Shown here piece by piece: positions 3,172-25,279 of a stretch of 25,923 nt of DNA. Each line of letters begins with the position of its first letter. Position 1 is the stretch's first letter. The stretch is taken from positions 1 through 25,923 of the forward strand of contig JANNXQ010000184.1 of assembly GCA_031409655.1 (NCBI GenBank), read 5' to 3'. The position numbers and the translations under genes were made by a program. The DNA is from Chthoniobacteraceae bacterium. GTDB taxonomy: Bacteria > Verrucomicrobiota > Verrucomicrobiia > Chthoniobacterales > Chthoniobacteraceae. The notes under the pieces are model-generated. The model did no database searches. It saw nothing but the letters and a program-made list of their open reading frames with translations, and was not told where the DNA came from.

Positions 3172-3256
3172 CAGCCTGTTGAAACATACTGTGACAGGGC
3201 GGAGCACAGCCGTCCCGGCTGTGCTCCGCTGAGCAATTGGGTTTTTCAAGAGGCTG
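3172..3256. repeat. Nested inverted-repeat element (MITE/REP-like; possible bidirectional terminator)
   Basis: Outer IR CAGCCTGTTGAAA (3172-3184) / TTTCAAGAGGCTG (3244-3256) with 1 mismatch. Inner perfect 14-bp hairpin GCGGAGCACAGCCG-TCC-CGGCTGTGCTCCGC (3199-3229). Lies between convergent genes. Confidence 0.7.
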
Positions 3257-11943: not shown

Positions 11944-12225
11944 ATGGCACAACAAGCAATTGGACTCATCGAAACCCGCGGCCTCATCGCCTTGGTCGAA
12001 GCAACTGACGCAATGCTGAAGTCGGCAAACGTCGAACTCGTCGGACCCATGACCCAAGTCGGCAACGCGATGGTGACCGTCTGCGTCACCGGCGACGTCG
12101 CCGCCGTCAAGGCCGCCACCGAAGCTGGCAAGAACGCCGCGCAGTCGCTCGGCGAAATCGTCAGCGTTAGCGTCATCGCCCGTCCGCACAACGACCTCCC
12201 CGCCGTCCTTCCAAAGGCAAAGTAA
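11944..12225 (+). CDS. BMC shell hexamer (BMC-H), third copy
   Basis: Starts at ATG 11944: [37 protein letters not shown]. Confidence 0.95.
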   Translation: MAQQAIGLIETRGLIALVEATDAMLKSANVELVGPMTQVGNAMVTVCVTGDVAAVKAATEAGKNAAQSLGEIVSVSVIARPHNDLPAVLPKAK

Positions 12226-12253
12226 GAAGGTCTAAGGATGAAGGATGAAGGAC
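12226..12253 (+). repeat. Heptamer tandem array, left arm
   Basis: GAAGGTC-TAAGGAT-GAAGGAT-GAAGGAC, starting immediately after the BMC-H stop and containing the ATG at 12245. Confidence 0.9.
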
Positions 12254-12604
12254 TTCGAGTCGCCGGATTTGGTCGAAAGAACGCGCGCATTTGCGTTGCG
12301 GATCATTCGCCTGTCGGCGTCGTTGCCTCGGACGAAGGAAGCTTCGGTCCTCGGCCACCAAGTTCTTCGATCCGGCACTTCCGTAGGGGCGAACTATCGA
12401 GAGGCGCAACGCGCCCGAAGCAAGGCCGAGTTTTGCGCCAAGATTGGTGACAGCCTCAAGGAACTCGATGAAACCCTCTACTGGCTGGAACTCATTCTCG
12501 GTGCCGATTTGATCAAGCCAGTCCGGCTTCACCCGCTGACCACCGAATGCAATGAACTCCTCGCTATTTTCACCACTATCCACAAACGAGCGAAAGGCGT
12601 CTGA
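12245..12604 (+). CDS. Four-helix-bundle protein (23S rRNA intervening-sequence protein / Avd-like family)
   Basis: RTRAFALRIIRL, QVLRSGTSVGANYREAQRARSKAEF..K....LKE.DETLYWLEL and ECNELLAIF form the family signature; 119 aa. Confidence 0.93.
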   Translation: MKDFESPDLVERTRAFALRIIRLSASLPRTKEASVLGHQVLRSGTSVGANYREAQRARSKAEFCAKIGDSLKELDETLYWLELILGADLIKPVRLHPLTTECNELLAIFTTIHKRAKGV

Positions 12605-12611
12605 GCGGGTG

Positions 12612-12644
12612 CCTTCATCCTTCATCCTTCATCCTTCATCCTTA
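12612..12644 (-). repeat. Heptamer tandem array, right arm (inverted relative to the left arm)
   Basis: (CCTTCAT)x4 + CCTTA, running into the ATG at 12644. Confidence 0.95.
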
Positions 12645-12952
12645 TGATCTTGGCCCGCGTAGAAGGCAGCGTCGTCGCGACGAAGAAGAACGCGAAGATG
12701 ACGGGGAATAAGTTCCTCCTCGTGCGTCCACTCGTGATCGACTCCGCAAAAGGCGGCGACTGGAAGCCCGGCACGAGCACACTCGTCGTCGTTGACAGCC
12801 TTGGCGCGGGCGAAGGTGAGATCGTCCTCATCGTGCAAGGCAGCTCCGCGCGATTGGCCGCCGATGACAAAGACTCACCCGTCGATGCCGTCGTAGTCGG
12901 CCTCGTGGACACCGTCGATATCGGCAAACACATCCTCTACAAGGCGAAATAA
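12644..12952 (+). CDS. BMC vertex pentamer (BMC-P, EutN/CcmL family)
   Basis: MILARVEGSVVATKK, VVDSLGAGEGEIVL..GSSAR, PVDAVVVGLVD. Confidence 0.95.
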   Translation: MILARVEGSVVATKKNAKMTGNKFLLVRPLVIDSAKGGDWKPGTSTLVVVDSLGAGEGEIVLIVQGSSARLAADDKDSPVDAVVVGLVDTVDIGKHILYKAK

Positions 12953-13006: not shown

Positions 13007-14437
13007 ATGACCAACATTGATGACAAACTTGTCTCCCGCGTCGTGAGCGAAGTGCTCGCGCGGCTCCAGACGCAGATCAAGGTGACTTCCAGCGGATCGA
13101 GCCAGTTTGGCGTCTATGAAAAGATGGAGGATGCCTGCGAGGCGGCGCATCGCTCGTTTGAAAAGTTGCGTGAACTTGGCGTCTCTGCGCGGCGCAAAGC
13201 AATTCAAGTCATCCGCAAGATGTGCGTGGCCAAGGCTCAGGAGTGGGGAACGATTGAATTCAACGAGACGAAGATCGGCCGACTGGATCACAAGATCGAG
13301 AAACTCAAAATCTGCGGCGATCTCGTGCCGGGCGTCGAGTTCCTCGAACGCATGGCTTTCAGTGGGGACTTCGGACTCACGATCATCGACTTTGCGCCGT
13401 GGGGTGTCATCGGTGCGGTGACGCCCTCGACTCACAGCGTCCCGACGCTCACCGGCAATGCGATCAACATGATCGCAGCGGGTAACTCGGTCGTCTATAA
13501 CACGCATCCCGCCGCCGCAAACTGCGCGGCGATTGCGATCAAGGCTTACAACGAAGCCATCTTTGCGGAGATCGGCATCTCCGACTTACTCACCACGGTG
13601 GTGAAGCCGACGCTCGATACCTTCGACGTGATGTGCAAGCACCCGAAGGTGCGTCTCCTTTGTGTCACTGGCGGTCCTGCCGTCGTCGCCGCGGCGATGA
13701 AAACGGGCAAACGCGCAGTGTGTGCGGGTCCCGGGAATCCTCCGGTGGTCGTCGATGAAACCGCCGACCTCGAGGTCGCGGCAAAGTCGATCATCCAGGG
13801 CGCGAGCTACGACAACAACCTGCTCTGTATCGGCGAGAAGGAAGTGTTCGTGGTGGAAGCCGTGGCCGACAAACTCATCGCCGCGCTCAAGCGTGCCGGT
13901 GCCGTGCAACTCGACGCCAAGCAGATCGAGGCACTCTCAGACAAGGCGTTCGTTTTCCCGCAGGGCAAAGGCGCGGGCTGCCCGCATCCAGTGGTAAATC
14001 GCGACCTCGTCGGCCGCGACGCAGCGGTGCTCGCGAAAGCCATCGGTCTCGACGTGCCACCGGCGACGCAACTCCTCTTTGGCGAGACCAAGGCCGATCA
14101 CATCTTTGTCGACGAAGAGCAGATGATGCCCTTCATCCCGGTGGTGCGCGTACCCAATGTGGACGCTGGTATCGCCGCCGCGATCCACGCCGAACACGGT
14201 TACAAGCACACCGCGGTGATGCATTCGCAGAACATCCGCAATCTCACCAAGATGGCGCAGATCGTCGATACCACCCTCTTCATCAAGAACGGTCCGTGCA
14301 TGACCGGCCTCGGCCTCGGTGGCGAAGGATTCCTCAGCTTCTCGGTCGCCACGCCGACCGGCGAAGGCGTGACCACGCCGATGACCTTCACCCGCTCCCG
14401 CCGCTGCGTGATGGTCGAAAACTTGAACCTGTTCTAA
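13007..14437 (+). CDS. CoA-acylating aldehyde dehydrogenase (EutE/PduP type)
   Basis: PWGVIGAVTPSTH, TGGPAVV, AGPGNPP, catalytic DNNLLCIGEKE, EQMMP, TPTGEGVT; N-terminal amphipathic helix. Confidence 0.96.
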   Translation: MTNIDDKLVSRVVSEVLARLQTQIKVTSSGSSQFGVYEKMEDACEAAHRSFEKLRELGVSARRKAIQVIRKMCVAKAQEWGTIEFNETKIGRLDHKIEKLKICGDLVPGVEFLERMAFSGDFGLTIIDFAPWGVIGAVTPSTHSVPTLTGNAINMIAAGNSVVYNTHPAAANCAAIAIKAYNEAIFAEIGISDLLTTVVKPTLDTFDVMCKHPKVRLLCVTGGPAVVAAAMKTGKRAVCAGPGNPPVVVDETADLEVAAKSIIQGASYDNNLLCIGEKEVFVVEAVADKLIAALKRAGAVQLDAKQIEALSDKAFVFPQGKGAGCPHPVVNRDLVGRDAAVLAKAIGLDVPPATQLLFGETKADHIFVDEEQMMPFIPVVRVPNVDAGIAAAIHAEHGYKHTAVMHSQNIRNLTKMAQIVDTTLFIKNGPCMTGLGLGGEGFLSFSVATPTGEGVTTPMTFTRSRRCVMVENLNLF

Positions 14438-14701
14438 ATGCGCCTCGCGACGATCAAAGGCCACGTCACATCGACGGTGAAGCACAAAAGCCTCGATGGC
14501 TGGCGGCTGCTCCTGGCGATGCCGGAGAGCCCTGACCTCGCGCCACAGATCGTCCTCGACTCACTCGGTGCAGGCATCGGGCAGAAGGTGCTCATCTCGA
14601 GCGATGGCAGCGAAGCGCGTAAGATGGTCGGCGACGAACGCAGTCCGGCGCGGTGGACGGTGCTAGGGATCATTGATCCGGAAAGGGATCTCGCGCTATG
14701 A
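14438..14701 (+). CDS. BMC vertex pentamer (BMC-P)
   Basis: G.VTSTVKH.SL.G, DSLGAGIGQKVLISSDG, PARWTVLGIID. Confidence 0.93.
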   Translation: MRLATIKGHVTSTVKHKSLDGWRLLLAMPESPDLAPQIVLDSLGAGIGQKVLISSDGSEARKMVGDERSPARWTVLGIIDPERDLAL

Positions 14702-23050: not shown

Positions 23051-24991
23051 ATGGATTTGAAGACGGCACTCCAGACGCACTTTGGTCACGACGAATTCCG
23101 CGGCGGACAGGAGTCCGTGATCCGTGCGCTGCTTGACGGGGAATCGGCGCTCGCACTTTTTCCCACGGGCGCGGGGAAGTCGCTCTGCTACCAGCTCCCG
23201 GCGGTGCTGCGCGAGGGGACGGCGCTCGTCATCTCACCGCTCATCGCGCTGATGAAAGATCAGGTCGATGCGCTGCGGGCGCGCGGCATCGCGGCGGCGC
23301 GGCTCGACTCCAGCCTCACGGCGGAGGAGACGCAGCGGGTGTATGCGGACTTGCGCGAGGGGAAGCTGAAGTTGCTCTACGTCGCGCCGGAGCGGCTCTC
23401 GGGCGAGGCGTTTGTCGAGCGATTGCGGCGGGTGAAAATCTCGCTGCTGGCGATTGATGAGGCGCATTGCATCTCGGAGTGGGGTCACAACTTTCGCCCC
23501 GAATATCTGCGCCTCGCGCGCGTCGCCGAGGAGCTGGCGCTGCGGCCCGTGCTCGCGCTCACCGCCACGGCGACGCCCGACGTCGCGCGCGACATCTGCA
23601 AGGCCTTCGGCATCGCGCCGCAGCGGCATGTGCAGACTTCCTTTCGCCGAAAAAACCTCCACCTGCGCGTGACGCCGTGCGCCGCCAGCGAAAAGCTGGC
23701 CGTGCTCACGAAGCGTCTCGCCAGCGCGAAAGTCCGGCCCGCGGTGGTCTATGTGACTTTCCAAAAAACTGCCGAGCAAGTGGCCGCGCACCTCGCGCAG
23801 GCGGGGCTGGCGGCGCGGGCCTATCACGCAGGGATGACCGCCGAGGATCGCGACGCGACGCAGGAGGCGTTCATGCGCGGCTCGTGCGAGATCATCGTGG
23901 CGACGATCGCCTTCGGCATGGGCATTGATAAGGCGGACATCCGCAGCGTCATCCATTTCAACCTGCCGAAGACGCTCGAAAACTATCAGCAGGAAATCGG
24001 GCGCGCGGGCCGCGACGGGCAGCCCGCGCTCTGCGAGCTGCTCGCCTGCGCCGACGACGCCGTGCCGCTGGAAAACTTCACCCTCGGCGACACGCCATCG
24101 CCCGTCGCCGTCGAGGCGCTCGTGAGAAAAATGCTCGGCGCGGGCGAGGAATTCGACGTGAGCCGCTACGACCTCAGCCAGGAAACCGACATCCGCCCGC
24201 TCGTCGTCGAGACCGTCATCACCTACCTCGAACTCGACGGCCTGCTCCGCCCCACGCGCGCCTTTTACGAAAGCACGCAGGTGCAGTTCCTGAAACCCGA
24301 GAGCGCCATCCTCAGTCCGCTGAACGACGACCGCCGCCGCTTCCTCACCGCGCTCTTCGCCGCGGGACGCCGCGGTCCGAAATATCTCACGCTCGAACTC
24401 GAAGCCGCCGCGCAAAAACTCGGCGAACCGCGCGACCGCATCGTGAAAGCGCTCACCTGGCTGGAGGAAACCGGTGCCATCACGCAAAAGCCCGCCGGCC
24501 TGCGCCACGGCTTCCGCCTCACCGGCGACGCCGCCCTGCGCGACCCCGCCGCCGTCGCCGCACACCAGGCCGAACTCTTCGCCCAACGCGAAACCCGCGA
24601 CTCCCAGCGCCTCGCACAAATCCTCGACTTCGCCAGCGCCTCCGGCTGCATCACCCGCCGCCTCCTCGGCTACTTCGGCGAAGCGCTCCCCGACGAAAAC
24701 TGCGGCCACTGCCACCACTGCCGCACCGGCGAACCCGCCGCCCCCATCACCCTCCCCGCCACCCCCATCGCCGAGTTCACCGAGTCCGACAACGAAGAAA
24801 TCCGCGCCCTCATCTTCGAGGAAATCCCCTCCCTCTCCACCCCGCGCCAACTCACCCGCTACCTCTGCGGCCTCACCAGCCCCGCGACCTCACGCGCCAA
24901 ACTCACCCGCCGCCCCGAGTTCGGCCGCTACGCCGCAGTGCCCTTCCGCACCGTCCTCGCGCAAGTAGAGGCGTGCTCCGCGGAGGAGTGA
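23051..24991 (+). CDS. recQ: RecQ-family ATP-dependent DNA helicase
   Basis: PTGAGKSLCYQLP, IDEAHCISEWGHNFRP, ATIAFGMGIDK, QEIGRAGRDG and Zn site C...CGHCHHC. Start at ATG 23051. Confidence 0.95.
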   Translation: MDLKTALQTHFGHDEFRGGQESVIRALLDGESALALFPTGAGKSLCYQLPAVLREGTALVISPLIALMKDQVDALRARGIAAARLDSSLTAEETQRVYADLREGKLKLLYVAPERLSGEAFVERLRRVKISLLAIDEAHCISEWGHNFRPEYLRLARVAEELALRPVLALTATATPDVARDICKAFGIAPQRHVQTSFRRKNLHLRVTPCAASEKLAVLTKRLASAKVRPAVVYVTFQKTAEQVAAHLAQAGLAARAYHAGMTAEDRDATQEAFMRGSCEIIVATIAFGMGIDKADIRSVIHFNLPKTLENYQQEIGRAGRDGQPALCELLACADDAVPLENFTLGDTPSPVAVEALVRKMLGAGEEFDVSRYDLSQETDIRPLVVETVITYLELDGLLRPTRAFYESTQVQFLKPESAILSPLNDDRRRFLTALFAAGRRGPKYLTLELEAAAQKLGEPRDRIVKALTWLEETGAITQKPAGLRHGFRLTGDAALRDPAAVAAHQAELFAQRETRDSQRLAQILDFASASGCITRRLLGYFGEALPDENCGHCHHCRTGEPAAPITLPATPIAEFTESDNEEIRALIFEEIPSLSTPRQLTRYLCGLTSPATSRAKLTRRPEFGRYAAVPFRTVLAQVEACSAEE

Positions 24992-25126
24992 AAGTAGTCC
25001 CCGACTTCAGTCGGCTAAAACTCCCGAGCGCAGAGGTCGTGTTCGATTCCGCAAAAAGCGGCCCTCGTGAAATGCGACGCCTACTCTGAACGCCACCCCG
25101 AACCGACTAAAGTTGGGAACTACTTT
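24991..25126. repeat. Inverted GTAG-type REP doublet (REPIN-like)
   Basis: AAAGTAGTCCCCGACTTCAGTCGG (24991-25014) and inverted copy CCGACTAAAGTTGGGAACTACTTT (25103-25126), 21/24 match; each carries an internal palindrome. Confidence 0.75.
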
Positions 25127-25279
25127 CCCGCCCCTTGCCCGCCTCCCGCGCGTGGATGGCCTGGAACCGGAGATCCCCCGCGGGCCGTAAGGCCGCGCGG
25201 CGCTGCCGCAGAATCACCCGCCCGCCGCCATCACTGCGCTCTTCTTCGCTCTGGTGAAAATGTCGGGCATCGCCCGATG

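Follow-up and report, generated by a model that had tools for sequence, protein, structure and literature searches.

The window, a stretch of 25,923 nt from the genome of a Chthoniobacteraceae bacterium (G000), carries a bacterial microcompartment (BMC) operon in which a gene for a 119-aa protein lies between those for the BMC-H and BMC-P shell proteins (Table 1). Acetate kinase, aldehyde dehydrogenase, a class II aldolase and a DeoR regulator are also encoded in the operon. Profile matches confirmed that the small gene belongs to the PF05635/TIGR02436 family, as an earlier note made from the sequence had claimed, and its two neighbours are undisrupted, full-length genes. The gene is framed by two arms of heptamer repeats. 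In the left arm three degenerate units are followed by two copies of AAGGATG and one of AAGGACT; Tandem Repeats Finder placed 2.7 copies of AAGGATG at 12234-12252 and 4.6 copies of CCTTCAT at 12612-12643. The two stem strands are exact reverse complements, giving the perfect 20-bp inverted repeat described in the note, with a loop of 372 nt. Both arms run into the coding sequences. The last codons and stop of BMC-H extend into the left arm, which also overlaps the first 8 nt of the PF05635 reading frame, so that its ATG falls within a repeat unit; the right arm ends on the A of the BMC-P ATG.

Table 1. Features at the BMC-H/BMC-P junction, in window positions
Feature	Position	Strand	Basis
BMC-H shell protein gene, 93 aa	11944..12225	+	PF00936, E 4e-24; intact in all relatives
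Left arm, full period-7 register	12213..12254	+	Sequence; Tandem Repeats Finder; reverse-complement check
Stretch in place of native 17-nt spacer, approximate cassette limits	12227..12643	.	Relative's contig; homologous spacers
Perfect stem strand within left arm	12233-12252	+	Reverse-complement check
Four-helix-bundle gene, PF05635 (23S_rRNA_IVP)/TIGR02436, 119 aa	12245..12604	+	Profile matches; AlphaFold model
Right arm, 4.6 copies of CCTTCAT (five CCTT cores)	12612..12644	+	Tandem Repeats Finder; reverse-complement check; folding
Perfect stem strand within right arm	12625-12644	+	Reverse-complement check
BMC-P (EutN/CcmL) vertex protein gene, 102 aa	12644..12952	+	PF03319, E 5e-28

Folding of 12200-12670 as RNA, a check proposed in the note, closed the 20-bp stem with a z of -3.1, and 0 of 100 shuffled sequences were as stable. 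A perfect flanking inverted repeat of at least 14 bp was found at 5 of 755 short genes in the host genome, two of them PF05635 genes and the other three Y1 transposases. Contigs from three public runs span 12138-12640 with 0 differences, which shows that the cassette is real DNA. Its gene is atypical overall in codon usage, with a CAI of 0.54 that falls in the 6th percentile of 637 short genes, against 0.63-0.75 for the neighbours. The earlier note had singled out particular codons that look rarer in the flanking shell genes; CGA, GTA and TTG are present in BMC-P too, which limits the diagnostic value of these codons.

The protein matches PF05635 with an E-value of 1e-19 (71 bits against a cut-off of 33.8) and TIGR02436 with 1e-25 (90 bits against 24). 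Its AlphaFold model is all-helical, with four helices and a pLDDT of 94, and aligns with 2RLD (Z 17.7) and 2GSC (Z 16.6) with rmsd values of 2.1 and 2.5 over 110-112 residues; each of these structures contains five chains. The next structural match was Avd (Z 13.6; TM 0.75 to 4DWL; 16% identity), at a Z-score equal to that of generic helical bundles. No nuclease or transposase was among the top fold matches, a result still compatible with catalysis. Close homologues are mostly from Verrucomicrobiota, and at least 90% of 63 sequences share the residues Q39, R42, S46, E73, E76 and W80. The protein is under strong purifying selection, with dN/dS at 0.05-0.10 in five within-clade pairs of same-site copies and 0.16 against L036. 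Two structures have been solved for PF05635, the function of which is unexplained, and the family is present in 43 of the 61 genomes searched, with up to 12 copies.

The earlier note had suggested looking for empty BMC-H/BMC-P junctions in related loci. Of 61 genomes searched, 24 had a BMC-P match, and all 23 besides the host genome lacked a PF05635 gene at this junction. The same-genus genomes G001 and G003, with shell proteins 94-99% identical, have a spacer of 21-24 nt there, and related spacers of 20-24 nt are found in G001, G003, G012, G022, G028 and G036. A relative's contig from a public run connects 12226 to 12644 through 17 letters of native spacer. This contig and the homologous spacers show the native sequence, and therefore the spacer has been replaced by the cassette and not duplicated, in agreement with the absence of a target duplication reported in the note. 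On these comparisons the gene and its two AAGGATG arms are a discrete IVS-type cassette that has taken the place of the native spacer. The two empty joints in public-run contigs derive from organisms about 85-89% alike; none of the DNA-contig joints shown gave an empty or excised cassette allele in the same strain, in contigs that drop rare variants.

We also found the same cassette at the same junction in six of 80 homologue loci (L036-L039, L042 and L059; 65-71% identical), which counts against a unique insertion. The filled state requires 3 changes on a host-gene tree of 27 rows, from which three loci were left out for missing genes. Since the spacer of the closest relatives is in addition shared with more distant genomes, G000 is placed by the sequences as having gained the cassette. 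The seven same-junction cassettes form one group (support 87/90), within which the G000 copy groups with those of more distant hosts; a host-congruent cassette tree was not rejected (p-AU 0.23). The G000 flanks stay G001-like to within about 12 nt of the junction, where no co-conversion tract longer than this was seen, and within clades the protein divergence follows that of the hosts. We read this pattern as repeated gain of a cassette lineage that would be loyal to its site, and stepwise exchange between close relatives is possible. The idea of a mobile element settling at operon junctions thus stands as far as a discrete acquired element and empty junctions are concerned; the lineage at this junction, with six other genomes filled, is site-loyal.

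The host genome contains 10 PF05635 genes, and a search with an in-house profile gave no extra diverged copies. Seven have an inverted-repeat score of at least 14, and the other three, one of them frameshifted, have degenerate arms. The arm units are AAGGATG (four genes), ATTTAGG, AACATCG, GTGATTG, a GGAGTCG-like unit and the hexamer TCGTCC. Similar arrays occur throughout the genome, with 547 of period 7 against 44-69 for periods 5, 8, 10 and 11. They form 137 inverted pairs, of which 117 are gene-less with spacers under 100 nt, and which we refer to as doublets; all six inverted heptamer pairs spaced 300-500 nt apart enclose a PF05635 gene. Motif-based calling gave 161 doublets, a few possibly counted twice, in seven unit families. 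One of these, AAACGCC, has 29 doublets yet no G000 gene of that exact unit. The window cassette is an IVS-type element to which a REPIN-like, genome-wide doublet family is attached, and within this family it is the member that carries the gene.

The doublets are depleted between convergent genes and enriched between divergent ones. Using a simple in-house gene caller for the context, we observed 105 between co-oriented, 35 between divergent and 9 between convergent genes, against an expected 106, 22 and 21 (p 6e-4), with a further 9 inside called genes and 3 at contig ends. A start codon (ATG) lies no more than 20 nt beyond the right arm in 45 of 105 sense cases, compared with 21 of 108 antisense controls. 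Open frames were co-oriented in 58/64 upstream and 53/64 downstream, against 45/64 and 23/64 in the antisense control; this control is high, and the one observation that we therefore use on co-orientation is that starts cluster within about 10 nt of the stem. Each arm unit combines a short invariant core with 2-3 variable positions. Arm length is specific to the family, with six cores in 66 of 108 paired AACATCG arms and five in 15 of 28 AAGGATG arms; in hexamer arms the core number varies. Because arm length is fixed per family, the arms are not products of ordinary microsatellite growth, and the microsatellite-derived stem of the earlier note has to be given up. A match of one repeat per pentamer subunit was considered and not adopted, the core number being 5 for AAGGATG, 6 for AACATCG and variable for hexamers. 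The loops of about 30 nt are nearly all unique, with one clearly similar pair 4 kb apart, and so give little sign of recent copying. No sense-strand G-U bias was seen in the arms (99 G-U against 111 A-C, p 0.45), so selection on an RNA stem is not supported by the pairing.

We also looked for enzymes that might act on these repeats. The genome has a gene for RNase III and 13 Y1 transposase matches, at loci separate from the PF05635 genes. Y1 transposases were rejected as carriers of the arms, 12 of the 13 loci having no heptamer array nearby. The earlier note saw no reverse transcriptase, and we likewise obtained no RVT_1 match in the 95%-complete genome. Adenine mutagenesis of the kind found in diversity-generating retroelements was set aside on this result and on the unit variants, which include T and C changes and not adenines only.

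The enrichment of arms around homologues, proposed as a check in the note, was clear. An arm score of at least 14 was reached at 63 of the 76 homologue loci with enough flank, from a set of 80, and at 2 of 440 control windows. The periods are mostly 7, with one octamer clade. On a tree of 118 proteins and 117 columns, arm family requires 35 changes against a shuffled mean of 73, a clustering signal that is inflated by relatedness. The AAGGATG protein clade occupies many unrelated junctions, and close homologues of the window protein lie in many unrelated operons. Doublet units track the resident gene in G000, G001, G002, G003, G012 and G030, with gene and doublets agreeing on AACATCG in G000, AACATCC in G003, an AACGTTC-type unit in G030, AATGACG in G002 and AATGACC in G001. 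In a survey of the 61 genomes that summed three patterns with overlapping hits, at least five doublet-pattern hits were found in 14 of the 43 genomes with PF05635 and in 0 of the 18 without, although kin among them are not independent; 3 of these 18 have one to three hits. The pairing is imperfect in both directions. Genes with AAGGATG arms occur without any doublet hit in G054, G008 and G039, whereas in G003 and G025 AAGGATG doublets are present and none of the genes inspected has arms of this unit.

Orthologous junctions show that the elements have been gained, lost and exchanged, as far as sequence comparison can tell. We took 29 PF05635 loci from five relatives and mapped 20 to G000. The same gene is present at 8 of these sites, and 6 are empty; the others carry a doublet with a different unit (2 sites), a two-gene module (2), a remnant arm (1) or another hairpin (1). 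The two modules (G000:C208:23564-24339 and C196:30195-30722) look to us like toxin-antitoxin pairs. These two junctions hold PF05635 cassettes in G012 and G030. From 22 doublet loci of same-genus genomes, 16 mapped to 15 G000 sites, of which 8 carry the same family, 2 another family and 5 none. The presence of a doublet at 10 of the 15 sites indicates that most copies are inherited. At four of the 8 same-family sites the unit changed from AACATCC to AACATCG, and the loops are unalignable.

A related arrangement is seen around XCC0516, the S23p protein crystallised as the pentamer 2GSC. Scanning metagenomes for no more than a GGGAATC left arm and a short coding motif returned 18 loci, at least two pairs of them duplicates, all of which match the PF05635-family profile, and in 17 of 17 readable loci an inverted arm closes the gene just before the next start codon. 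The gene that starts after this right arm is presumably accC-like, judging from its N-terminal sequence. Heptamer arrays are a recognised and unexplained excess in bacterial genomes, and in Xanthomonas campestris 186 GGGAATC arrays have been described, mostly of four units; 70 cases belong to inverted pairs, and the sites are junctions between co-oriented genes (PMC4692102). Row 15 of supplement S2 places a 4-unit array 6 nt after bccP, overlapping the XCC0516 start, with no partner arm given in that table (PMC4692102). At sequence level the published doublets match the arm in front of XCC0516, a link that is not drawn in the accessible parts of PMC4692102, where the repeats are read as G-quadruplex sequences without a protein partner. 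They resemble the cassette family in having unit arrays, inverted pairs and co-oriented junctions, with one array at an S23p start, whereas the units of the window genome are mostly not of the G-tract type.

A close known relative of the cassette is the intervening sequence (IVS) of 23S rRNA, as the earlier note had recognised. Such an IVS is removed from the transcript by RNase III, and the cut ends are not religated. According to the part of PMC4990558 available to us, the Coxiella burnetii IVS has a gene of the same family, heptamers before its ATG and a terminal stem of 28 bp, and RNase III cuts at the first heptamer repeat. Both elements are about 430 nt long, the window stem being 20 bp and perfect. 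The window cassette lies between protein genes, unlike the Coxiella IVS, which sits in a helix of the 23S rRNA gene. Its protein is under purifying selection, whereas the Coxiella S23p is decaying, with no synthesis in vivo found in the account available to us (PMC4990558), and, as a further difference, it comes with genome-wide gene-less doublets. In this last respect the cassette is closer to REPIN-RAYT systems, in which a gene lies within inverted cognate repeats and many gene-less doublets are intergenic (PMC3337134), with several groups per genome, unique spacers, two arm orientations and mostly vertical inheritance in the portions of these sources that we could consult (PMC3337134; 10.1101/2021.07.10.451892). 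In contrast to the palindromic REPs of REPIN arms, the arms here are tandem units of 6-8 nt, and the protein is a four-helix bundle that matches only PF05635 and not the HUH/Y1 tyrosine transposase fold of RAYTs. The doublets also avoid convergent junctions and show no excision intermediate in DNA contigs of the same strain, unlike REPIN-RAYT as described in the available text. With no Y1 transposase and no REPs, the cassette is not a member of that class.

The likeness to Avd, the accessory protein of diversity-generating retroelements, lies in a related four-helix fold and in the pentameric ring of its relatives. Avd binds flipped-out RNA bases between protomers, as reported in the accessible part of 10.1101/2023.10.23.563531. 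Unlike such a retroelement, the window gene has no reverse transcriptase, template or variable repeat pair nearby, and the cassette differs from a classical MITE or insertion sequence in lacking a target-site duplication and a conserved internal sequence among copies. Arrays of TAACTGA before start codons in Beggiatoaceae, Cyanobacteria and Bacteroidetes (PMC4679880) are similar in being short heptamer arrays that end beside start codons; these are almost wholly single, and no four-helix-bundle gene is named in the sections of PMC4679880 open to us. Our literature search, which had most subscription papers outside its range, found IVSs, heptamer repeats and REPINs treated separately and nothing that joins PF05635 genes to intergenic doublets.

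Our best reading of the locus is an IVS-type cassette that is organised like REPIN-RAYT, with an Avd-like ring and no recognisable transposase. We infer every step beyond the anatomy of the cassette. The protein would form a ring like its pentameric relatives, and this ring would read a core of 3-5 nt every 6-8 nt. We consider it likely, from the many gene-less copies of the same repeats in this genome, that the protein recognises the heptamer repeats and helps to spread them; it probably binds the repeated arm cores and probably serves both to maintain and slowly to spread the cassette and the gene-less doublets. Having no recognisable catalytic fold, it would be an adaptor through which a host enzyme of recombination or repair is brought in, much as Avd assists a reverse transcriptase. 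Copying would be rare and at the DNA level, as for REPINs. RNase III would likely cut the stem in the operon transcript, leaving both neighbours intact, and through such cleavage the insertion would be tolerated in the way that it is in 23S rRNA. For this combined scheme, in which a ring that reads the periodic cores would enlist a host enzyme to copy or replace elements on rare occasions, while RNase III makes insertions tolerable, we judge the chances to be about even. A broader proposal is more tentative and to our minds somewhat doubtful, namely that PF05635 proteins drive transposase-free replicators and that the heptamer repeats in excess across bacteria, including the Xanthomonas GGGAATC arrays, and ORF-bearing 23S IVSs may be one system. 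Each Avd-like ring would then read its own code of 6-8 nt, home to junctions and rewrite hundreds of doublets, which we hold with the same reserve.

Several of these observations could also be explained if the protein served the host as a regulator. An RNA-binding ring, of which TRAP and Hfq are familiar examples, might control translation or mRNA processing at operon junctions and regulate its own synthesis, with the doublets as selected binding sites. The depletion of doublets at convergent junctions (9 against 21) and their enrichment at divergent ones (35 against 22; p 6e-4), the start codons within 20 nt of the right arm (45/105 sense, 21/108 antisense) and the strong purifying selection all point this way, and a similar proposal has been made for the TAACTGA arrays before start codons, in the part of PMC4679880 available. 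We nevertheless think it rather unlikely, since close relatives differ in what occupies one and the same junction, be it a gene cassette, an unrelated module, a doublet built from other units or nothing, the arms have no G-U bias, and a genome may have up to 12 paralogues or, in 18 of 61, none. It also offers no route to more than 100 doublets of fixed length. Another explanation makes the gene passive cargo, with arms that are spread or homogenised by homologous recombination or another enzyme, and the gene persisting as a long-lived presence/absence allele that close relatives exchange through conserved flanking genes. This would leave unexplained why the units follow the resident gene and why doublets are nearly absent from genomes without the family, and the proteins of the AAGGATG clade are encoded at many junctions that are unrelated. 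It would account for the site loyalty of the seven cassettes (87/90), the lack of a target duplication or long co-conversion tract and the tracking of host by protein divergence within clades. The 13 Y1 transposase matches could act in trans, but 12 have no heptamer array nearby. We regard this explanation as unlikely.

It is also conceivable that the element moves as RNA, its loop being excised or circularised from the mRNA and re-inserted by reverse transcription with the help of the Avd-like ring. The fold relationship to Avd, the stable predicted stem and the excision of the Coxiella IVS by RNase III described in the available part of PMC4990558 are consistent with this. Against it are the lack of an RVT_1 match in G000, unit variants that include T and C changes and not adenines only, and pairing without a strand bias, and we consider it improbable. 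Least credible of all, to the point that we give it almost no weight, is that the protein is an accessory component of this microcompartment; the earlier note had already described the family as not a recognised BMC component. It is co-oriented within the operon in seven genomes, but it is absent from 23 of 23 other sampled loci, including those of the same genus, its close homologues are in many unrelated operons, and the corresponding operon of G012 carries, at another of its junctions, a PF05635 cassette distinct from this one.

If the preferred reading of a protein-assisted repeat cassette is correct and the protein is needed for spread, this would be a system that moves with no transposase or reverse transcriptase that can be recognised, and the long-standing problem of how IVSs with an ORF spread would be solved. 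Should the doublets be regulatory, more than 100 gene junctions in each genome would carry a processing signal that has gone unrecognised. In either case the pairing of protein clades with arm units offers a putative first obvious ligand for the PF05635 family.

Other repeats were observed within the microcompartment operons. At the BMC-H/BMC-P junction, L014 and L016 have a different hairpin of about 105 nt with a unit of about 10 nt, which belongs to a parallel repeat family, and one genome has a heptamer array there. In G001 (L148) a gene-less AACATCC doublet lies between BMC-P2 and BMC-P3, where G000 has none (window 14697-14701); the two genes overlap by four bases in the window, and in G001 this overlap stands on both sides of the insert. 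The G012 cassette (L141) has degenerate arms with AAC cores and occupies the junction of the aldehyde dehydrogenase and BMC-P genes (window 14437-14438), and G046 has a PF05635 match about 1.6 kb beyond its BMC-P.

Further observations concern the wider family and the host genome. The octamer-armed PF05635 clade in Opitutaceae (L061, L066, L073 and about 20 related loci) sits at two junctions, which from the N-terminal sequences we take to be atpA/atpG and atpG/atpD. The frameshifted gene at G000:C179:3975-4439 (L010) has a complete small hairpin on each side, and such double-hairpin flanks are also present at L040, L041, L064 and L090-L095. At G000:C82:7140-7269, and likewise in G001, a doublet fills nearly the whole gap between two genes that appear to be divergent, so that promoters would have no obvious place. 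Several of the Y1 matches (L207-L214) lie inside very long open frames of 328-1374 aa. Within the window, a REP-like 30-nt inverted repeat, 83% complementary and 88 nt apart, follows a helicase-like gene (24985-25132) and has one partial second copy on C294, and an 85-nt imperfect hairpin at 3172-3256, single copy in the genome, lies between convergent genes.
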